From: a phage
Sequence record: NC_100327.1
Length of the DNA: 64,000 nt
Reading direction: 5' to 3' (one strand)
Shown: positions 19,574 to 28,978 of the stretch, in pieces
Position numbering within the stretch: position 1 is the first letter of the stretch
How the letters are laid out: every line of letters starts with the position of its first letter
Program-made: the position numbers and the translations under genes
Notes under the pieces: model-generated
The model's database searches: none
Told to the model about the DNA's origin: nothing
Seen by the model: the letters and a program-made list of their open reading frames with translations, nothing else

Positions 19574-21319
19574 TTAACGTTGTGCAATTACTACGTCTAC
19601 AATATCACCAACACCACAATACGTTAATTGCAGCAAGGTAACACTGTTAGCCTTGTTGTTAATAACAGGTGTTGCCGACAGGATAGCATACTTATCGTGC
19701 AAAGTCACGTTGTGACCTACAGCATCCTGAATGACATAGATAACTGCAGTGAATGGATAAGGTTTATCTTCCGCTGATGTCCCAGGCCACTGTCCTATTG
19801 TAAAATCCCCTTTCGCGTGGACAACATACATGCTGGCCTGCCCGTTAGGTGTCCATGTCCCACTGGACGCGTCAACCTCCTCTAAGTCAAAATCTACCTT
19901 TCCTGCGTGGAAAGTAGGGGCAGTAATGGTTTTACCCGCCTCAATTTCTTGAGAGGTGGTTATCTTACCACTGGAGTTAATGCCATTACAGACAAAGTTG
20001 ACATTAGAGAAGTCTGGCAGCCACCCGGTCACTGTGCCGGATATTTCAAGGTTGTGAAGGTAGGTGGTGCCAGTCCCTGCGGCGTTTAAACTAACATCTC
20101 CATTTACCTGCAAGTTTCTGGTAATGTTGCAGTTTTCAGAGTTTGCAGTTGTTGCAGTTAAAGTGGTGGTGGTTAGCTCGGTAATTGTACCTTTATTGGC
20201 TGTAAGCCCTTCTCCTTCAAAAGTTGCACGCTCATTGACTCTTAGAGTATTCAGAGCTATATTTTGGATAGAGGCTGTACCTCGAATAACTACAGACCCG
20301 CCAACCTCCAAATCGCCATTTATCAATGCATCACCCGTGCTTTCAATATAGCTAGGGTAGATCATGGTGCCATCGACAGAGTATGTTATCCCTGTAACGG
20401 TACCTGTCACCTCAAGGTTCTTAACCCTGGTGGTCCCATCGACCTGCAATGTCGGTTCGGTTGCTGCCTTCATGGCATTACCACGAATGTACACGTAGTC
20501 AAAAAAGTTATTACCCAGACCATCAAAATGCACATCGTTATTATTGGCCACTGGTTTCCCAGAAGTTATAGTGTCAGCTATAACCCTGTGGGTGGACACT
20601 TCATGAGGTTGCAGCTCTGTACTTCTCCAGTCTGCATGCTTAGGATCGCTCCACGCAAAAGTAAGTGTAGAAGTATTTGCCGTGAGGATTAGATTCCTAA
20701 AGCGTGCAGTAGAATCTGCCCCATTAACAGGTCCATGTAAGGTAAGGGTGCCACCAACTATAGTGTTAGCGAGTTCTGTAAGACCTTTTACCACCAAAGA
20801 CCCTACAGTAACTTTCATCCCCTCCATGGCTTTAAATATGCTATCAACATAGTCAACAACAAACTCTGTGTTTGCTATGGACTCTGACTTATCGTCCATT
20901 GGAGGTGTAGGTACTCGTGGGTCACCTTCGAACCTCGGGCTGTTAAGTTTTGCGTAGTATTTTGCCATTACTGCAGAGTCGGTATATAATCTCCAGTTTG
21001 GAGATTGTGAAGGATCTGCTGGCATTCTAACCGGGTTAGATTTTGATGCTGCGGGAGCGTACCACCACTGAGGGCCTGTGTCCCCTTTAAACTCGTACAG
21101 CTGGTTAAAAACTGTTGTGGATGCACCATACGCCCAAGGGATCGGTGGCGTTTTAAAATAAAGGTTGTCAAGCATGGCTTTTCGTACCGTAGGGATGGTG
21201 GTCCCATCCTCTACGACAACTTCATCCACAGCGTTACCGTTGACAACCAAGTGCAAACGTTCAGAATCAACAATTACTTGATCTACCGCCTGCTCAAAGC
21301 TTGTCATGTCTTGCGCCAT
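19574..21319 (-). CDS. tail fibre or tailspike protein
   Basis: 581 aa, Gly/Thr/Asn/Val-rich repeats typical of beta-helical fibre proteins; inside tail-fibre gene block. Confidence 0.5.
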   Translation of the reverse strand: MAQDMTSFEQAVDQVIVDSERLHLVVNGNAVDEVVVEDGTTIPTVRKAMLDNLYFKTPPIPWAYGASTTVFNQLYEFKGDTGPQWWYAPAASKSNPVRMPADPSQSPNWRLYTDSAVMAKYYAKLNSPRFEGDPRVPTPPMDDKSESIANTEFVVDYVDSIFKAMEGMKVTVGSLVVKGLTELANTIVGGTLTLHGPVNGADSTARFRNLILTANTSTLTFAWSDPKHADWRSTELQPHEVSTHRVIADTITSGKPVANNNDVHFDGLGNNFFDYVYIRGNAMKAATEPTLQVDGTTRVKNLEVTGTVTGITYSVDGTMIYPSYIESTGDALINGDLEVGGSVVIRGTASIQNIALNTLRVNERATFEGEGLTANKGTITELTTTTLTATTANSENCNITRNLQVNGDVSLNAAGTGTTYLHNLEISGTVTGWLPDFSNVNFVCNGINSSGKITTSQEIEAGKTITAPTFHAGKVDFDLEEVDASSGTWTPNGQASMYVVHAKGDFTIGQWPGTSAEDKPYPFTAVIYVIQDAVGHNVTLHDKYAILSATPVINNKANSVTLLQLTYCGVGDIVDVVIAQR

Positions 21320-21328
21320 GATTTCTCC

Positions 21329-21595
21329 TTAAGCTTTTTGCTCTTCGTTTTTAACGTGGTCAGGGTGCTGGCAACCCCACCGGAGCGAGATGAATTTGCT
21401 AATAAGCTGGGGGCAAGCTACTGAAGGCGCGTATATCCACGCATACCATTCAGGAAGCGTATCATTATACCCCATATGAATAAACACCCCAGTCATCACC
21501 GCCATGCCTATGTTCGACCATAGCTTAGTTTGGGACACTTTCGTAGGGTCATCAGATGCCGCAACCAGTCCCCATAAAAACTGAGTTAGTTTCAT
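21329..21595 (-). CDS. small membrane protein (holin-like topology)
   Basis: 88 aa with two to three hydrophobic segments and charged C-terminus. Confidence 0.3.
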   Translation of the reverse strand: MKLTQFLWGLVAASDDPTKVSQTKLWSNIGMAVMTGVFIHMGYNDTLPEWYAWIYAPSVACPQLISKFISLRWGCQHPDHVKNEEQKA

Positions 21596-21606
21596 TTACC
21601 CTCTTT

Positions 21607-22650
21607 TTAAGCATAAGATATAGTGATCCATTGACCATTTACAAGTTTTTGGATAGCACCTGTCCAGTAGTCACCTTGATAAGGGTGTTTATAAGCGTAG
21701 TTACCAGAGCACATCACATGCCCAGGGTAGACTCTTGACTCTCTGTAGGTGGTTTTGAAACGGTTTGCTATCCTTACATCATCAACCCCTCTGCTAGGCA
21801 TAGGAATAGTAAGGTTACCACTACTGTCTGCGCCGTTACCATTTACCCTGCGGACCACGTTTCTTCCACCAACTGTTGCGTATTGGCCCCTGACGGTTTC
21901 ATCGTTACAATCAACTCTTCCACCTATTTGAGCGCTTCCGCAGGATTGTTGTCCATTAATAGTGGCTCTTGGTATCGTGACCGCATTGGCATTTGCAGAG
22001 GAACTTTTTGCATCGTTGCATTCAAGATTCCCTTGGATAGCCAGTCTTGCACGGTTGGCAGTTATAGCATTGAGCTTCATAGCCGAAAACACAGGCTGCC
22101 CACCAGAAGGTTGAAATCTCCAACGGAACCCGTCTATTTGGTGAGAAGGATCATCAAGGTCTGTGCCGTCAGCACCACCGATGTTGTCCATAATCCAGAA
22201 ATCCATCGTCGTCTTGTCTGGAGTTATGGTGGTATATATTGCCGCATTGTCTGTTGACGCAGATGCAAACTCGATTCTTTGAAGACCTAAAGTTTGAGTC
22301 TGAGTCATTATGTCTCCAGACTTGTCAATATATAGATCGTCCATTTCTTCAGGCGAGTATACATTGAGAACTTGACGTGCAGCAGCTTTGTCTGGAACGT
22401 CTGCTAGATTATTAGTGACCCTTAAGAATCTATTATCCCATCCTGGGACAACATCTTCTGTTAGATGCTTTAACCACGCAGAAAGCATGTGAAGTTCAAA
22501 GTTAACAACTTCACATGCCACTCTTTGTGTCATATCCCAACCTTTCAATCTCTCTTCTTTTTTTGGTTGAGACTTATTCAACTCTCCCGTATTTTCAAGC
22601 ACAACATCCTGATTGGCCCAAATATCAAGAGGGATAACTGGTTTAGTCAT
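21607..22650 (-). CDS. tail fibre protein, paralog B
   Basis: 347 aa; N-terminal IWA...GW motif typical of side-tail-fibre baseplate-attachment domains; C-terminus LQKLVNGQWITISYA shared with paralog at 23665-24705. Confidence 0.6.
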   Translation of the reverse strand: MTKPVIPLDIWANQDVVLENTGELNKSQPKKEERLKGWDMTQRVACEVVNFELHMLSAWLKHLTEDVVPGWDNRFLRVTNNLADVPDKAAARQVLNVYSPEEMDDLYIDKSGDIMTQTQTLGLQRIEFASASTDNAAIYTTITPDKTTMDFWIMDNIGGADGTDLDDPSHQIDGFRWRFQPSGGQPVFSAMKLNAITANRARLAIQGNLECNDAKSSSANANAVTIPRATINGQQSCGSAQIGGRVDCNDETVRGQYATVGGRNVVRRVNGNGADSSGNLTIPMPSRGVDDVRIANRFKTTYRESRVYPGHVMCSGNYAYKHPYQGDYWTGAIQKLVNGQWITISYA

Positions 22651-22739
22651 CGCGTTCTCCTGAGAAAATTCCTTAGGACTATTTTAACACTTTAGAGAAC
22701 AAAATGCAAGAACGGAGTCCTTTCCGTTCTGACCTTTGT

Positions 22740-23054
22740 TTACCTTTTACTATGCTCTACGAGCATGTGCAAAATCTTTTGTACATCAGCTCGGATACCG
22801 GAGACATCTGTCCTGACATCCTGCTTAAGGTCGTTAATATCGGCCTCTAGCTTGCTTAACCGGGTCTCGATAACGGAATCAAGTTTATCTTTTGTAACCA
22901 TACTGTTTTTCACTAAGATGAGGTCTTTCTCCAGTTCATCCAACCTCTTGGAAATGCCTTTCCATTTGGTGTGCCACTGGTTGAAAGCCCATACACAGAT
23001 CGGGACAACGGTACCCATGCAGATACCGTACAATGCCGCCAAATCCAACTCCAC
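22740..23054 (-). CDS. membrane-anchored coiled-coil protein
   Basis: 104 aa; N-terminal hydrophobic helix then heptad-like charged region. Confidence 0.35.
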   Translation of the reverse strand: MELDLAALYGICMGTVVPICVWAFNQWHTKWKGISKRLDELEKDLILVKNSMVTKDKLDSVIETRLSKLEADINDLKQDVRTDVSGIRADVQKILHMLVEHSKR

Positions 23055-23065
23055 AACACCTCCTC

Positions 23066-23650
23066 TTAGAGGGTAGGTCGCTCCGGGAAGAAAATGTCAG
23101 GGGCTTTAGATGTATCTATTTCAAGAAGTTTTACCCTGTACATTTTCAAATCTCTGATGTTACGTTTCTGGTCATCAGTAAGATCATATTCAAGGTCAAT
23201 CATGTCTTGATAGGCACCAATTCTAGCAGTAGCCCAAGCAAGTTCTGTCTCTATGACACCCTCTGCCTGTTGAACAAAGAATTCATTGTCTGTGACAAAT
23301 TCATCACCAACTAAACGCAAAGCGTCGTGGTGAAGCATAATGTTTTCTGGTACCTCTTCTTTTTTGGCGATAACCACACGAAGACCTGGAGCAGGCCATA
23401 AGGCATCAGGTTCTTCTGTAGATGTCTTAAGAATTCCCTTTTCGTCAACAAGTAGGAAGATACAACCCGGATTTTCTTGTCGTAATGTTCTTGACTGCAC
23501 ATACCAATCGCCATCATCATTACGTAAAAAATACCCAGTGTATGCGGTGTAGTCCTCAACCTCTTGAGGGGTCAGCTCTTTGGTTTCCTTGTTGGCGTGG
23601 TATTCGCCAGATCCCGGTTGGTAAAGTTTAAACTCTTGGAGTATTTTCAT
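23066..23650 (-). CDS. tail fibre assembly chaperone (Tfa-like)
   Basis: 194 aa directly downstream of a tail fibre gene; C-terminal segment resembles conserved C-termini of Tfa/gpG/Mu U-type chaperones. Confidence 0.5.
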   Translation of the reverse strand: MKILQEFKLYQPGSGEYHANKETKELTPQEVEDYTAYTGYFLRNDDGDWYVQSRTLRQENPGCIFLLVDEKGILKTSTEEPDALWPAPGLRVVIAKKEEVPENIMLHHDALRLVGDEFVTDNEFFVQQAEGVIETELAWATARIGAYQDMIDLEYDLTDDQKRNIRDLKMYRVKLLEIDTSKAPDIFFPERPTL

Positions 23651-23664
23651 GCTAGTCCTCCGAT

Positions 23665-24705
23665 CTATGCATAATTAACAGTGATCCATTGACCATTTAC
23701 AAGTTTTTGTAAAGGTCCTGCCCAGTAAGTTGAACCACGCATCTCTTTTTTGTCACCGAAATGCCAGCCTGTGACAACGTAGCCATTGCGGATTGGAGAC
23801 TCAGAAACGCCGTCCACAAGTCTTGCACCGATTCTGATGTCTTGCACACCTGTCTGCGGGATAGTGATCGTTACATCACCGTTACCGTTAGCCGTCACCC
23901 CGTTCACAGAGCGCACCACATTTCTGTTACCGACAACACAGTGCTGGCTTCTTACAACCATACTGTCACAACTTGCACCACCATTAACATATACTGACCC
24001 AGCCGTCAACTGACTAGCCACATTACAGTTGGTGAATGTTGCGGTATTGCTGATAGTAAGGTTATTGCACCTCATGTTATCGACAACTTCAACATTGCCT
24101 ACCACTTTCAACAGCGCACGGTTAGCCGTGATCGCGTTAAGGTACATCAAAGTGAACTCCGGATTAATATCCGGTTGAGTTGGCTGGAATCTCCAACGAA
24201 ACGCATCTATTGTAGATGTGCCACCATCATCAAACGCCCCAGTATTATCACTTAACCCAAAGTCGAGAGTTGTCTTATCTGGGCCAATAGTTGTCTCTAT
24301 CCAAGCCTTATCTGTCTCGGCAGCTTTAAAGTTGATACGTTGCAAACCCAATGGGCCTGTCATTGTATCACCTGTAACTTTTACATACCTGGCGTCTGCC
24401 TCTTCCTTAGTAATAATCCCAAGGTTTCTACGGGCAACAGGAATGTTCAAAAGATCACTCAAGTTATTATCACGTACCAGATAACGGCCTTCTTGAGCGG
24501 GGATCTGCTCGTCAGCAATGTATTTTGCCCAAGTTCCGAGCATATTGAAAATATAGTTAAGTTCTTCACATGAGGGCTTTTGACCAAGATCCCAACCTTT
24601 TCTCCACAAATCATCAATCGGGCGTAGCCTGTTCTGTCTGTGGGTGTTAGGCAGAACCTGATCCTCCTCTGCCCAAATCTCTAATGGAAAACTAGGTTTT
24701 GACAT
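23665..24705 (-). CDS. tail fibre protein, paralog A
   Basis: 346 aa; N-terminal EIWA...KGWD motif and C-terminal LQKLVNGQWITVNYA shared with paralog B, divergent middle. Confidence 0.6.
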   Translation of the reverse strand: MSKPSFPLEIWAEEDQVLPNTHRQNRLRPIDDLWRKGWDLGQKPSCEELNYIFNMLGTWAKYIADEQIPAQEGRYLVRDNNLSDLLNIPVARRNLGIITKEEADARYVKVTGDTMTGPLGLQRINFKAAETDKAWIETTIGPDKTTLDFGLSDNTGAFDDGGTSTIDAFRWRFQPTQPDINPEFTLMYLNAITANRALLKVVGNVEVVDNMRCNNLTISNTATFTNCNVASQLTAGSVYVNGGASCDSMVVRSQHCVVGNRNVVRSVNGVTANGNGDVTITIPQTGVQDIRIGARLVDGVSESPIRNGYVVTGWHFGDKKEMRGSTYWAGPLQKLVNGQWITVNYA

Positions 24706-24717
24706 TTTATCTCCTGA

Positions 24718-26790
24718 TTATGAGAAGTCTGGCGGGACAACATCTTCTACATACCCTTTCAGAGCAACCTGCCCCATATGAAGCACGGTAGAATCTCTAG
24801 CGGTAACAGTGATGCTGTCAGACATTACTTGCGGGTATGCCCACACATACTGTTTTACCTCAGGGTATCTATACTCTATAGTTGCCATGTTTCCGCAAAT
24901 ACATCTCCATAAAAATTCTTGGTAATTCCTAGTTGGGTCGTAACCATATACCGGAGCAAGCTCTTTACTAGGAACGAACCCTGTAAGGTATTGTATTTCA
25001 GACGGTTGCCAACCTAACTTAACGATAGGTATGTTTACAGACTCTTTTGCCTTTTCAATACCTCCCTGCATCACCCAATCGTAGCACTCGGTGCAGAAGA
25101 AATCAAGAGCACCTGCTTCCTTTTTATATTGGTCAGCAAGGTTAAGCTTTTGCGTAAGCTCGGTTTCCATAATGGTTGGGAAAAACAGCAGAGCTGTCAT
25201 CTGAGCTGATGCAGCGTGTGCCTTTATTGCCTTTGAAATAGCAGCAATACGAGCGCCAAGCTTACCACGACAAAATGCTACATACTTATCGTAAACACCG
25301 CCAGTTTTAGGATCGTCAATAGTCCCAATATCTAATGCATACTCGCCTGTCTCATCATAAAACGCCTGTTTTGTAGGGTAATCATAAATACAAGGTCTAC
25401 GAGTATCGGTATTGTACCACCACCACGGTTCACCAACCTGCATAATCACTGGCAGGTTGTTTCTCATAGCGGCTGATGCAAAATTCTTAAATACTGCAGT
25501 AAGGAAATTCATACCCTCTTCAATGGTTGGAGACAGGAGGTAGCTACAAGGTGTATACCCTGTTTTAGCGTAGTTATCGTTCCAGTCTCTTTGGGTCCAT
25601 TCCAACGGGCAGGCATCGCTGAAAAGCTCAAAACTTACAGATTGCATAACGTCGAAGTTATGTCGTTTGGCATTGTACATAAAATCATCATGCCATTTAT
25701 AAGCTGCAGCGTTTAGCGCTCCTGTTCTGTTTATAGACCATTGGGTTCCTGACCATGTGTAGTCATAATAATGACTCATACCAACATAATGGTTTATGGT
25801 TCCGGTATAGCCCAGACGCTTGATATTGTTCAACACCCTTAAAGGGGACACGTTCCACATATCGTCATATGCGGTGCAGATCCCAACGTCGTGCTCTCTC
25901 ACCTGGATATTATTAAGTTGCATCATTTTCCAGCCTGTGTCTGGCTGAAGCAGATCTAGGCGCAACTCACACTCTACATTTTCCGTTCTTGGATCTGTGC
26001 TATTACTTACCCAGTCTTTAGGCATAAGTGGTATTAAAATCCTTCTCACCTGCCGAGGATCAACACCCATCATGTTGTTGTTCTGGTCCATCCCGACGCA
26101 GTCCTCAAAATCAATATGAATTTCTGCAACATTTTTATCCTCTGAGATGCTGACAGCATATTGAGCTAAAGGAACATAGATGATTGTGCCATCAACAAGG
26201 TCTACAGTCATAATCATCTTTTCAGGAGTGGAGAAGTTGCTGGCGTTGGTTATTGACATTCTGAACCAAAGCTTGGTGTTTCTCATCTCATAGTGATCAT
26301 CAAACCCAATACCGAAATGGTCATACTTGTCAACTGTTTCCCAAATGCACCCAGCCATACCTCCATATGTTCTTGACACTAAACGGTTAATACAACAGTT
26401 GTTATCTGCAACAATACAGGTACTTTCAGTCTGCTGAGTGGTTGTAACCCAATATCTTGGGTGAAACATTCTCTCCTCAACAGTATCCCAAGATATCCTG
26501 TCAAGATTCTCATCTGAAACTATTGTACATTTCGCCCTTTGTGTTCCAATCATCACTCCTTGAGATTTTGATGAAAACTCCATAAAGAAGCTTCTTGGCA
26601 ACCTGTTGGGTAATTTGTCAACAATTTCCACTGGGATCTCAATACTGGTTGCCCCAACTGGGATAGTTACATCGCCCTCAACATGATCATAATCTCTACC
26701 AGGAACGGCAGTATCCTGAACTGTGCGGTAATGAAACTGTGCAGCCATTGTAGAGTAATCACGGTAAGGTTTAAAAACAGCTGTTGCCAT
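24718..26790 (-). CDS. tail-associated protein with N-terminal Calx-beta-like domain and possible enzymatic domain
   Basis: 690 aa; GRDYDHVEGDVTIPVGATSIEIPVEIV resembles Calx-beta motif; Trp/Tyr-rich C-terminal domain. Confidence 0.4.
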   Translation of the reverse strand: MATAVFKPYRDYSTMAAQFHYRTVQDTAVPGRDYDHVEGDVTIPVGATSIEIPVEIVDKLPNRLPRSFFMEFSSKSQGVMIGTQRAKCTIVSDENLDRISWDTVEERMFHPRYWVTTTQQTESTCIVADNNCCINRLVSRTYGGMAGCIWETVDKYDHFGIGFDDHYEMRNTKLWFRMSITNASNFSTPEKMIMTVDLVDGTIIYVPLAQYAVSISEDKNVAEIHIDFEDCVGMDQNNNMMGVDPRQVRRILIPLMPKDWVSNSTDPRTENVECELRLDLLQPDTGWKMMQLNNIQVREHDVGICTAYDDMWNVSPLRVLNNIKRLGYTGTINHYVGMSHYYDYTWSGTQWSINRTGALNAAAYKWHDDFMYNAKRHNFDVMQSVSFELFSDACPLEWTQRDWNDNYAKTGYTPCSYLLSPTIEEGMNFLTAVFKNFASAAMRNNLPVIMQVGEPWWWYNTDTRRPCIYDYPTKQAFYDETGEYALDIGTIDDPKTGGVYDKYVAFCRGKLGARIAAISKAIKAHAASAQMTALLFFPTIMETELTQKLNLADQYKKEAGALDFFCTECYDWVMQGGIEKAKESVNIPIVKLGWQPSEIQYLTGFVPSKELAPVYGYDPTRNYQEFLWRCICGNMATIEYRYPEVKQYVWAYPQVMSDSITVTARDSTVLHMGQVALKGYVEDVVPPDFS

Positions 26791-27476
26791 TAACCCTCCT
26801 GTCTAGTTGCGTTTACTGTAATACTTTCACAATAAATGGTTGTGGTGTCCCAATCAGGTCTTACGTCAGGAACATATAGCAAAGTAGCCAGCCCACCAAC
26901 TCCGAATTGGTTTTCTTCCCACACTGATCCGAAGCCCAGAGCTGTAGAGTCCCCTTCAAAACCAAAAGCTTGCCCTTGCGATTCTGTAAGACGCAAATGA
27001 CAAGGCAATGGTAGCATATCTAAGATCTGATCGATAGACTGCAATATGTCAAAGCAAGTTTTTCTAATATTTATGTCAAACCTGAAGTTGTCTCCTTTCC
27101 ACGTATCGAAATTGTCTCTTCCGAACAATTGTCGCAAGGTGGAGATGACATCTTCGCGAGTCCCGCCCCTTGATGCTGCGGCCTGCTGAATAATTAGTGT
27201 GGCACGAAAATCAGCATCTGAAAGTCCATTCCTAAGAATACCAAGTTGATTACCAACTTCGTCAAGGTATCTTCCGCTGGCATTGTTAAGCAATCTTCCT
27301 TCAGCCAAACCTACCAGCATCTTATCAACATCCTCCAACCTTTTAAGGTATACGGTTAAGAATGTGACTAAATTAACCTTCTCAGCCAGAAAATCTCCAG
27401 GTAGGTAGTCAAGACCTCCCTGAACAAAATCTGGCAGAGTGTGGATGTGGTTAACATCCGACTTAATCTCTGCCAT
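26790..27476 (-). CDS. baseplate protein (gpI-like position)
   Basis: 228 aa immediately downstream of J-like wedge gene; position-based. Confidence 0.35.
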   Translation of the reverse strand: MAEIKSDVNHIHTLPDFVQGGLDYLPGDFLAEKVNLVTFLTVYLKRLEDVDKMLVGLAEGRLLNNASGRYLDEVGNQLGILRNGLSDADFRATLIIQQAAASRGGTREDVISTLRQLFGRDNFDTWKGDNFRFDINIRKTCFDILQSIDQILDMLPLPCHLRLTESQGQAFGFEGDSTALGFGSVWEENQFGVGGLATLLYVPDVRPDWDTTTIYCESITVNATRQEG

Positions 27477-27487
27477 ATCTCGACGCC

Positions 27488-28978
27488 TTAAATAGTTTGT
27501 TGGAAAGTTATATTACTTTCGTCGAGGTCAAACACCTCGGTCATGTTCGCAACAATATCGTTTGTAGTGTAAGCTTCATCAGAAGCTCCTACGGATTTAA
27601 CTTGAATTACCAGTCTATTAAATCTGCCTATTGACACAGCAGCGGATGCAGCACCGACCAATTGGATATTGTATAACGTATCTGCAACATCCAGTCCGTT
27701 AACAACCTGCAAAAGAGCCTCTACAATGGCATCTTTTTCGGTTGTGGAAAGCGCAGCACCGGAGTAGGTAATTCTTACATCCAAGCGGTAGGTATTTGCC
27801 TTGGAGTAATAAATTCTTTCAGTTTGACCGTCAGATGTAGTGACATCGTAGAAAATATTACCATAAGTCCTGTTCGTACAGGCTATAGTTTGGTAAAGTG
27901 CTTGGCAAATGTCCTCCGTTGCACCACCAAACACAACCACTTGGAACTTGTAAGGAGGTATACCTTTAGCATCAGTTTTATCAGTGTTGTTGGAGAACAC
28001 TCTCACTTTCTCAACACCTTTCACCTCGCTTACAGCGCTAAGGATTGCAGGACGGGTAGCCTTCGATGTTAACTGTTTTGTGCTGGAAGCTCTTAAGCGA
28101 TACTCTGAGTCTTTCTCAACATCCCTGCCCTCATTGAATCTTTCTCTGTTGGTAAGCTTGATAAATCCACTGGGAGTAGGTGACATTGTTGTCACGGTTT
28201 CTGCCTCTCTTGACAGCTCACCAGCCTCGTTAGCGATAACATCTAGGGTGATAGTTCTTTCCCCTACAATCGGAGATACTCTGAAATCTACCCTACTATT
28301 AAGTCCAACTTGATCAAGATTCGAATTGTACCCTATCCACAACGTTCCTGTCAACATATCGATCTGAATCAAATCGTCGTTCAACAGGGTTGTATTATCG
28401 ACAATGAACTGCTTAATCTCTCCGTAAAAGCTTGGCAGATCAGAGGAGTCCAGAGACTTATCTGTTAAAACCAGACTTTTTGTTTTGATACTTCCATCTG
28501 TCTGGTTGGTGATTTGAAAGTTGTATTTACCAATCCTTAGGTCTGGAGCATTTATTCTGTGGGCAATAAGATTCCCTGCCACCTGCACATCATTGCTAAG
28601 AACAAAGTTGCCACTATCCAGCGTATAAGTTTTGGAATCATAAATCATATTGTACGGCACAGTTGTGTTGATTGTCAACTGGCAGGTACCTGATGATTTA
28701 GAACGGCCTCTTCGGTAAATACCCTGTCTTCCAAGAAGCTCATCCAGGTAAATACCTTCTGCCCCATACAGCGTCTGTGATGCGTATACAGATGCTGCCA
28801 TAAGAATAAGTTGATACTCTCGCTCGTTGAAGATAGTGGTCAGCTTATCTGCAACGGAGTTACTCTGTACGTTGAAGTTTTCGCCAAAAGCACGGATCAG
28901 GCTTTGCTTAGTTTCAACGATTAGGTCATTTAGGGTTGGTATAACGAAACCAGCCTCTGTCAATCCATACTTAGCCAC
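27488..28978 (-). CDS. baseplate wedge protein (baseplate J-like)
   Basis: 496 aa; size and gene order match P2 gpJ/T4 gp6-type wedge subunits. Confidence 0.4.
   Translation of the reverse strand: MAKYGLTEAGFVIPTLNDLIVETKQSLIRAFGENFNVQSNSVADKLTTIFNEREYQLILMAASVYASQTLYGAEGIYLDELLGRQGIYRRGRSKSSGTCQLTINTTVPYNMIYDSKTYTLDSGNFVLSNDVQVAGNLIAHRINAPDLRIGKYNFQITNQTDGSIKTKSLVLTDKSLDSSDLPSFYGEIKQFIVDNTTLLNDDLIQIDMLTGTLWIGYNSNLDQVGLNSRVDFRVSPIVGERTITLDVIANEAGELSREAETVTTMSPTPSGFIKLTNRERFNEGRDVEKDSEYRLRASSTKQLTSKATRPAILSAVSEVKGVEKVRVFSNNTDKTDAKGIPPYKFQVVVFGGATEDICQALYQTIACTNRTYGNIFYDVTTSDGQTERIYYSKANTYRLDVRITYSGAALSTTEKDAIVEALLQVVNGLDVADTLYNIQLVGAASAAVSIGRFNRLVIQVKSVGASDEAYTTNDIVANMTEVFDLDESNITFQQTI

Follow-up and report, generated by a model that had tools for sequence, protein, structure and literature searches.

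In the Vequintavirus phage rV5, two paralogous short tail fibre proteins, gp33 of 346 amino acids (aa) and gp30 of 347 aa, are encoded together with a tail fibre assembly protein of the Caudo_TAP family (gp32, 194 aa) and a small protein listed as 'membrane protein, 1 TMD' (gp31, 104 aa) (Table S3 of Kropinski 2013, PMC3606486). Kropinski 2013 reported the paralogy of gp30 and gp33 at 42.3% identity and already suggested two lipopolysaccharide (LPS) specificities for them, and Maffei 2021 (PMC8594841) annotated the corresponding genes of the BASEL Vequintavirus phages as 'short tail fiber protein' (two copies) and 'tail fiber chaperone'. Here we describe the corresponding locus, positions 21607–24705, in a stretch of phage DNA of 64,000 nucleotides (nt) (sequence record NC_100327.1; hereafter the window), in which short tail fibre A (rV5 gp33 orthologue, 346 aa, 23665–24705), a tail fibre assembly chaperone (gp32 orthologue, 194 aa, 23066–23650), a small protein (gp31 orthologue, 104 aa, 22740–23054) and short tail fibre B (gp30 orthologue, 347 aa, 21607–22650) all lie on the minus strand. 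Genes, order, lengths and strand are those of rV5, with DNA about 99% identical and no substantive difference between the two loci; the locus is the published gp30–gp33 short-tail-fibre module, which is already known and is ordinary for the genus.

The phages phiTE and phi92 have the same neighbourhood, namely a wedge gene, a fibre gene, a Tfa gene, a gp31-like gene and a gp29-like gene, but each carries one fibre copy against two in the window. Their fibres (the phiTE short tail fibre, PDB 9CUY/9MJN, and phi92 fibre III, gp147) have an N-terminal attachment domain homologous to those of A and B and are present as six wedge-bound trimers: in the phiTE cryo-electron microscopy (cryo-EM) structure, the modelled short tail fibre N-terminus is the joint attaching to the wedge 1 protein (PMC11972413), and gp147, the single homologue in phi92, forms six trimers on the wedge (PMC13450770). 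The phiTE fibre differs in its length of 554 aa, its coiled coil and its immunoglobulin-like (Ig-like) distal domains, and the phage is flagellotropic; phi92-like fibres match the window fibres at the N- and C-terminal parts only (38% coverage). At the distal end, the closest described system is fibre S (gpS) of phage Mu with its chaperone gpU (TfaMu) (PDB 5YVQ), which shares a homologous tip with the window fibres, and in both phages a Caudo_TAP chaperone gene directly follows the fibre gene. In Mu, however, an invertible G segment, which comes with an invertase, holds a pair of alternative tips (S and S') and a pair of chaperones (U and U'), and each virion displays one type. In the window, both fibre genes are on one strand without inverted repeats and are accompanied by a single chaperone gene, and the two fibres are reported to be present at the same time. 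The N-terminal dock of the Mu fibre also differs, having no sequence relation to the window fibres.

We consider the locus, with a probability of roughly 0.7, to be a Mu gpS-type two-fibre module in which A is the ancestral copy, B is a derived paralogue and one chaperone is provided. From our analysis, this reading draws on gene identities, paralogy, domain homologies, the single chaperone gene, a mosaic phylogeny and purifying selection; from the literature, it draws on the presence of both fibres in virions and the LPS-core dependence of infection. A first-pass annotation, made from the DNA letters only, had proposed two paralogous fibres with a Tfa-like chaperone and a small membrane/coiled-coil open reading frame (ORF) between them; its coordinates and the minus strand of both fibre ORFs are exact, and its gene assignments agree with the published rV5 gp33, gp32, gp31 and gp30 (PMC3606486, PMC8594841). 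The details not found in Kropinski 2013 and Maffei 2021 are a concerted 30-nt block shared by the two fibre genes, the B-type dock substitutions, a converted fibre tip in an uncultured clade, and the replacement of another gene in the slot now holding B.

Two paralogous fibres and a single chaperone gene

Fibres A and B are homologous over their full length (43% identity over 356 columns, BLASTP E 2e-94), and both match PHROG 4465 'tail fiber protein', the Vequintavirinae short tail fibre family of the rV5 gp30/gp33 type, from end to end (A, E 2.4e-171, residues 1–346; B, E 6.7e-166, residues 1–347; each on profile positions 1–342 of 342). Along the alignment, whose column numbers are close to residue numbers, the identity profile is a mosaic: 60% in columns 1–20, 25–40% in columns 21–110 (still the N-terminal part), 50–70% in columns 111–210 (residues ~111–205), 15–25% in columns 211–260 (residues ~205–250), 60–65% in columns 261–290 (residues ~250–280), 25–35% in columns 291–330 (residues ~280–320), and 80% (12 of 15) in the last 15 residues. 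The best-conserved stretches, columns 111–210 and 261–290, are internal, and the earlier picture of divergent central regions between conserved termini does not hold. The terminal similarity itself is found on formal alignment, both in the first 20 residues and as part of the whole-length match; the C-terminal 15 residues that had been called almost identical agree at the 12 positions just given, and the second protein ends in IQKLVNGQWITISYA, not in the LQKL... that had been written for it.

Both fibres match the modelled N-terminal attachment region of the phiTE short tail fibre (PDB 9CUY), in agreement with the shared baseplate-attachment motif proposed in the first-pass annotation. In a phmmer search against PDB, residues 1–108 of A matched chain 9cuy_c with E 1.3e-19 and residues 1–83 of B matched it more weakly, with E 1.6e-8; the attachment domains of both are homologous to the wedge-bound phiTE N-terminus. 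Fibre A is the canonical copy, with a dock of the type found in all single-fibre relatives. Fibre B departs from A and from all single-copy relatives at positions that are elsewhere at least 85% conserved (P19 to E/D, I30, G41 to T/S, K43 to R and Y51 to F), and in B-type proteins RPIDDLW is replaced by QPKKEER or similar. Between B of the window and B of a member of an uncultured two-fibre clade (L003; L numbers denote the related loci surveyed below), the B-type N-terminus is 50–67% identical and is the best-conserved part of that pair. Because this N-terminus is conserved between clades, the B dock is a maintained altered docking surface and not a product of decay; it shares its fold with the A dock but, given the substitutions, probably not the interface.

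At the distal end, Q333 and W340 are invariant among 32 family homologues, aligned from a collection of 5.8 billion proteins, and the consensus end is IQKLVNGxWYNV; the C-terminal end of Mu fibre S is VQKNINGTWYNVASA. The last 60 residues of Mu S are 36% identical to A (BLASTP E 1e-6), residues 286–343 of A match the Mu S structure (PDB 5YVQ, 5yvq_A; phmmer E 1.9e-6), and the homologous tips read VRDVRLG...VQKNINGTWYNV in Mu and VQDIRIG...LQKLVNGQWITV in A. A Foldseek search with a low-confidence model of A gave 5yvq_A as the sole significant match (E 5e-6, probability 1.00). The match of B to Mu S is weak when taken alone (BLASTP E 0.008), and B aligns with A throughout. The fibres of the window have, on these matches, a Mu gpS-type distal tip that ends in a QK-x-(V/I)NG-x-W strand. 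The QKLVNGxW motif is a family-wide structural motif and is by itself no evidence for exchange between the copies; because it is family-wide and present in Mu S, common descent and structural constraint lead one to expect such protein-level identity in the last 15 residues.

T4 gp12 resembles the window fibres in proposed role, as an LPS-core-binding, baseplate-attached short fibre, and similarity of gp30 and gp33 to it was found by HHpred (Kropinski 2013, PMC3606486). The window fibres gave no Pfam or PDB sequence match to gp12. T4 gp12 is folded with the gp57A chaperone, not with a Caudo_TAP protein, and we regard the relation as functional analogy only.

The Tfa-like chaperone that had been proposed between the fibres is recovered at 23066–23650, where the product matches Pfam PF02413 Caudo_TAP well above the curated cut-off (E 8.4e-12; 45.8 bits against 22.1), with residues 121–192 on profile positions 60–130 of 131, which is the conserved C-terminal domain, and also matches PHROG 136 (E 2e-36). 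Since phmmer against PDB gave chance-level matches only and the alignment with Mu gpU runs end to end but is weak (23% identity, BLASTP E 0.003), the family membership is taken from Pfam and PHROG. The gene begins 14 nt past the stop codon of A, and a Tfa-like ORF lies directly 3' of the fibre gene in 25 related loci too. A tblastn search with the chaperone found no second Tfa homologue in the 64-kb window, and no such gene lies 3' of B. The C-terminal ends of the fibre pair co-vary within genomes, with ...NYA/...SYA accompanying the 194-aa chaperone and ...QTL/...QTL accompanying a 204-aa chaperone that is 44% identical to it. TfaMu binds the fibre through its variable N-terminal domain and drives trimerisation through its conserved C-terminal domain (PMC9608196). 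By analogy with TfaMu, and in view of the co-replacement of tips and chaperones described below and of the rV5 virion listing, gp32 would bind the fibre tips and would be needed for the folding of both A and B.

Origin of fibre B and exchange of fibre tips

Our synteny survey covered 33 related loci from IMG/VR together with loci from other assemblies. The conserved order in the relatives is the wedge gene, an optional gp34 gene, the fibre, a Tfa-like ORF and the gp31-like, gp29-like and gp28-like genes; two fibre genes are found only in Vequintavirus sensu stricto and in one uncultured clade (L003, L011–L013, L016). In most of the single-fibre relatives checked (Av-05-like, PVP-SE1, CR3/phiTE-like and others), the slot between the gp31-like and gp29-like genes holds an ORF for a polytopic membrane protein of ~155 aa (L017 6949–7422, L018 6997–7470, L035 7554–8012 and equivalents). 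One single-fibre locus (L027) has gp31 directly followed by gp29, with neither the membrane ORF nor B, and in the two-fibre genomes B fills this slot. The slot ORF and the gp31-like and gp29-like genes form a cluster of three small hydrophobic or membrane-type proteins inside the tail-fibre module.

Neighbour-joining trees with bootstrap were built region by region, and the regions disagree with one another. For residues 111–290, A and B form one clade (98% bootstrap) in which all A and all B are each monophyletic, and therefore a single duplication is placed in the ancestor of the two-fibre clades. For residues 1–110, B forms a separate long branch (100%) that lies apart from A and from every single-copy fibre. 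For residues 291–346, A and B of the uncultured clade cluster together (89%); there, the last ~60 residues of B are 80–90% identical to A (L003/L011), and on this sequence pattern the A tip has replaced the B tip.

The contigs of the uncultured clade (L003, L004, L011–L013, L016) come from ENA and IMG/VR metagenomes and are 117–141 kb long; relative to the window, fibre A is 73% identical, the chaperone 44% and gp31 ~50%. The second fibre of this clade is a chimera of a B-type N-terminus and an A-type tip, and the phage database held no isolate protein more than 60% identical to it.

Within the genus, both copies are under purifying selection as read from codon variation, and B is somewhat freer. 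Among nine rV5-clade genomes, 154 codons of A show synonymous variation only and 16 show nonsynonymous variation; for B the counts are 119 and 34, and the putative receptor loops (residues 291–332) had one amino-acid change in A and two in B. In the phage database, 93 records have A at 99% identity or more and 22 have it at 95–99%; the corresponding numbers for B are 36 and 79. Maffei 2021 (PMC8594841) likewise saw no considerable allelic variation.

The 3' ends of the two fibre genes share an exact match of 30 nt on the minus strand, encoding QKLVNGQWIT in both (23680–23709 in A, 21622–21651 in B), which did not occur in any of 100 shuffles and which is the core of a direct repeat of 62 nt with 84% identity (23666–23727 and 21608–21669). 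Inside the block, all nine identical degenerate residues use the same codon, against 43 of 129 outside it, where synonymous sites between the paralogues are saturated and the DNA identity of the two genes is ~50%; the probability of this excess is 5e-5 by a naive estimate, 1.9e-4 from codon usage and 0.003 by permutation of the longest run. A sister lineage (L005–L008), in which A is 87% and B 78% identical to the window copies, has GTC and CAG in both paralogues where both window copies have GTA and CAA, and CTG stands in place of CTT in all four of its B copies and in two of its A copies. Such synonymous co-variation between paralogues within a genome is the signature of short-tract gene conversion. 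The block is not permanently homogenised; several rV5-clade genomes differ at 1–3 positions, including an L-to-F change in B. One codon of the block varies between AAT and AAC among rV5-clade genomes in each paralogue (in A of L002 and L043, in B of L009 and L043–L046), and this could be polymorphism shared via gene conversion or recurrent mutation. When intragenomic and intergenomic DNA identities were compared in sliding windows, a conversion signal appeared nowhere but in the last window.

In related genera, whole tips are exchanged together with the chaperone. Up to residue ~249, the fibres of L022 and L023 agree at ~99% of positions; from a VGGRxVVRxVNG block onward their identity is only ~30%, and their chaperones are 13–22% identical. 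L030 and L031 show a similar discordance of tip and chaperone. The natural unit of exchange is therefore the last ~90 residues plus Tfa, with the internal VGGRxVVRxVNG block as the junction. Mantel-type correlations between fibre-tip and chaperone distances are all positive (rho 0.45–0.68) but confounded by phylogeny, and we judged co-replacement from the discordant pairs only (L022 against L023–L025, and L030 against L031).

An invertible host-range switch of the Mu G segment or P1 C segment type was also considered and rejected: both fibre genes are on the minus strand, and positions 21000–25000 contain direct repeats but no inverted repeats, a search that did not extend to an invertase gene.

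Neighbouring genes and related records

The gp31 orthologue fits the earlier description of a small membrane/coiled-coil ORF, having one hydrophobic N-terminal segment followed by a heptad-patterned helix. Its Kyte-Doolittle hydropathy reaches a transmembrane-like 1.9 over residues 3–24, and hydrophobic residues occupy 15 of 22 heptad a/d positions; it matches PHROG 5345, a family of unknown function, with E 1e-48, and a gp31-like gene directly follows the chaperone gene in all relatives examined. Regarding a role as an i-spanin or part of a lysis cassette, no overlapping lipoprotein ORF was found among the ORFs of the window, and the rV5 lysin gp89 and putative holin gp129 are encoded elsewhere in the genome than gp31.

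The 89-nt gap 5' of fibre B (22651–22739, minus strand) contains, in a consensus scan, a terminator-like hairpin at 22709–22730 (AGAACGGAAAGGACTCCGTTCT, then a T-rich tail), followed at 22680–22689 by TGTTAAAATA, a consensus-level match that resembles the rV5 late-promoter motif TggTAaAAtA (PMC3606486). From these signals, B may have a transcription start of its own, separate from that of A, gp32 and gp31.

Downstream of the module in all relatives lies the gene for the small gp29 orthologue (88 aa, 21329–21595, minus strand), which matches PHROG 1322 'membrane protein'; its hydropathy maximum is only 1.05, and membrane insertion is not evident by this measure. Next comes a fibre gene for 581 aa, the rV5 gp28 orthologue (19574–21319, minus strand), which has sub-threshold Pfam matches only and a strong match to PHROG 4549; orthologues in related contigs carry precomputed Pfam assignments to Phage_phiTE_241_N and Phage_phiTE_241_C. 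Directly upstream of A is the rV5 gp34 orthologue (690 aa, 24718–26790, minus strand), which matches the Pfam 'Non-contractile tail sheath protein' TIM-barrel (E 9e-80) as well as N-terminal sheath-family domains and Calx-beta, and is annotated in BASEL as a lateral tail fibre with glycosidase and deacetylase domains. A 2026 preprint ties a poly-GlcNAc deacetylase domain in a Vequintavirus/Justusliebigvirus tail fibre protein (e.g. phi92 gp142) to binding of the N4 glycan receptor, via similarity to N4 gp65, and the gp34 orthologue may be that deacetylase-domain protein. On the two short fibres, neither this preprint nor papers on Murica and Septuagintavirus had anything to add. Wedge proteins are encoded at 26790–27476 and 27488–28978.

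The window as a whole belongs to an rV5-like Vequintavirus, and the 8 kb around the locus is 99.8% identical to Escherichia phage rV5_ev168. Used as a query, this 8 kb matched 118 phage records, and in 110 of these one place accounts for 80% or more of the query; the records are Escherichia Vequintavirus phages except for one Shigella phage, two named 'Phage' and 16 labelled 'Campylobacter phage'. Deposited annotations of relatives give the same gene string on the same strand as the window, and that of BASEL phage WalterGehring reads, in order, short tail fiber protein, tail fiber chaperone, hypothetical protein and short tail fiber protein. The 16 'Campylobacter phage' records (MG0656xx; host stated as Campylobacter jejuni) are ~98–99% identical to this E. 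coli rV5-like sequence, those among the matches listed carry no annotation, and they look like mislabelled or contaminating coliphage genomes.

Proposed arrangement of the two fibres in the virion

In the two-fibre module that we prefer, each fibre would insert its N-terminal domain into the baseplate wedge, continue as a conserved shaft, and end in a distal module of ~90 residues starting from the VGGRNVVRxVNG block, with variable receptor-contacting loops and the QKLVNGxW strand at its end. The gp32 protein would act on the distal ends of both fibres to fold and trimerise them, in the way that TfaMu acts on Mu S, and this would require the C-terminus of B to remain compatible with that one chaperone. 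This shared-chaperone constraint, together with occasional short-tract gene conversion, would account for the matching extreme 3' ends, and a single gp32 serving both would likewise account for A and B ends that track each other within a genome. Fibre A would be ancestral. B would go back to a single duplication, placed in the ancestor of the two-fibre clades, and would have taken the slot of the ~155-aa polytopic membrane gene and then diverged in baseplate dock and tip loops. Most likely, A would occupy the canonical wedge site and B another site, giving two sets of homotrimeric short fibres per virion, and the different tip loops would let the fibres recognise the LPS core with two fine specificities, in line with the suggestion of Kropinski 2013 (PMC3606486). 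The separate homotrimers, the distinct docking sites, the shared chaperone and the different receptor specificity are parts of this reading that we infer. Dependence of infection on the LPS core is known: LPS-core mutants in waaC and waaG resist all Vequintavirinae that were tested, and the receptor of phage LL12 was mapped to the first glucose of the outer core (PMC8594841). A stronger version, in which B is neofunctionalised, docks at a second baseplate site or on another fibre, and has its C-terminal strand kept matched to gp32 by recurrent gene conversion from gp33, is tentative, and we would put it well short of even odds.

Several points weigh against the two-fibre reading. The statement that gp30, gp32 and gp33 were detected by total phage proteomics is a single sentence of PMC3606486, on which the presence of both fibres in virions depends; in Table S3 of the same paper the tag 'MS evidence' stands on gp34 and not on gp30 or gp33. 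Six tryptic-like peptides of A and B, and the gp numbers, did not occur in the rV5 supplementary text available to us (66,028 characters from five files, perhaps incomplete), a result that is uninformative. Our PDB sequence search with A and B returned no structure of either paralogue, and our literature search found no Vequintavirus cryo-EM paper. The AlphaFold2 monomer model of A, made from the 32-sequence alignment, is of low confidence (mean pLDDT 63, pTM 0.30). That gp32 serves B besides A is suggested by two things, the lack of a second chaperone gene and the shared C-terminus. Finally, all Vequintavirinae may share one secondary receptor (Maffei 2021, PMC8594841), which weakens the case for two specificities.

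The first-pass annotation had regarded the layout as that expected for recombination-driven exchange of receptor-binding parts, and the pair might indeed be chiefly a recombination cassette, whose conserved ends act as homology arms and speed host-range change. In favour of this view are the exact 30-nt block inside its 84% identical 62-nt repeat, the synonymous co-variation of this block in the L005–L008 clade, the B tip of L003/L011 that is 80–90% identical to A and groups with it at 89% bootstrap, the swaps of tip and chaperone in related genera, and the separate occurrence of N- and C-terminal modules in other phage groups. The junctions of these swaps, however, are not the conserved termini, and the C-terminal motif is family-wide. 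Outside the block, ~50% DNA identity and saturated synonymous sites leave almost no substrate for homologous exchange; the N-terminal residues 21–110 are among the most divergent stretches and fall into two distinct types; and recombination at the two direct repeats would cost the phage its chaperone gene. No inverted repeats are present in 21000–25000. The genes are moreover near-invariant within Vequintavirus (A at least 99% identical in 93 of 115 records, B at least 95% in 115 of 116), and the variable residues are not concentrated in the tip, with one in A and two in B over residues 291–332. We think it unlikely that exchange is the chief function of the pair.

Two further explanations concern the fate of the second protein. 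Near-equal lengths (346 and 347 aa), shaft blocks conserved at 50–70% over residues 111–210, the same C-terminal strand and only one chaperone would all suit a heterotrimer of A and B, so that the virion would have one mixed kind of fibre instead of two. The fibres of single-copy relatives (the phiTE short tail fibre and phi92 gp147) form homotrimers, though, and the two docks are of different, separately conserved types; the shaft contains indels, identity falls to 15–25% over columns 211–260, and B apparently has its own hairpin and promoter-like signal. We know of no heterotrimeric Mu-type fibre, and consider this arrangement quite improbable. Slimmer still is the chance that A is the only functional virion fibre and B is redundant, decaying or engaged in a role outside the virion. 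Such a view could appeal to the deviations of B at otherwise conserved dock residues, to its variability within the genus, about twice that of A, to its absence from most related genera, and to B peptides that were not verified in the perhaps incomplete rV5 supplementary text. Against it, B is an intact ORF of 347 aa in all 115 full-length Vequintavirus records and is subject to purifying selection (34 codons with nonsynonymous variation, 119 with synonymous variation only), its N-terminal type has been kept in two clades that differ by 27% in their A copies, and gp30 is listed among the rV5 virion proteins (PMC3606486).

The paralogy and the chaperone have been in the literature since 2013, and at the level of the locus our finding adds nothing new. 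The concerted 3' block, the dock substitutions of B, the tip conversion in the sister clade and the VGGRxVVRxVNG swap junction are mainly design hints for fibre engineering and a prompt for cryo-EM of the Vequintavirus baseplate, and the position of the second fibre is a narrow but real point of interest. Phages of the rV5 type are often considered for therapy and biocontrol, and their adsorption apparatus is unusually complex and multivalent; identifying the fibre that makes the irreversible contact with the LPS core, and the site of each fibre, would aid host-range engineering. If the stronger version, with a neofunctionalised B, is true, the module would be an example of a duplicated receptor-binding protein that has been added to an already multivalent baseplate without duplication of its chaperone.

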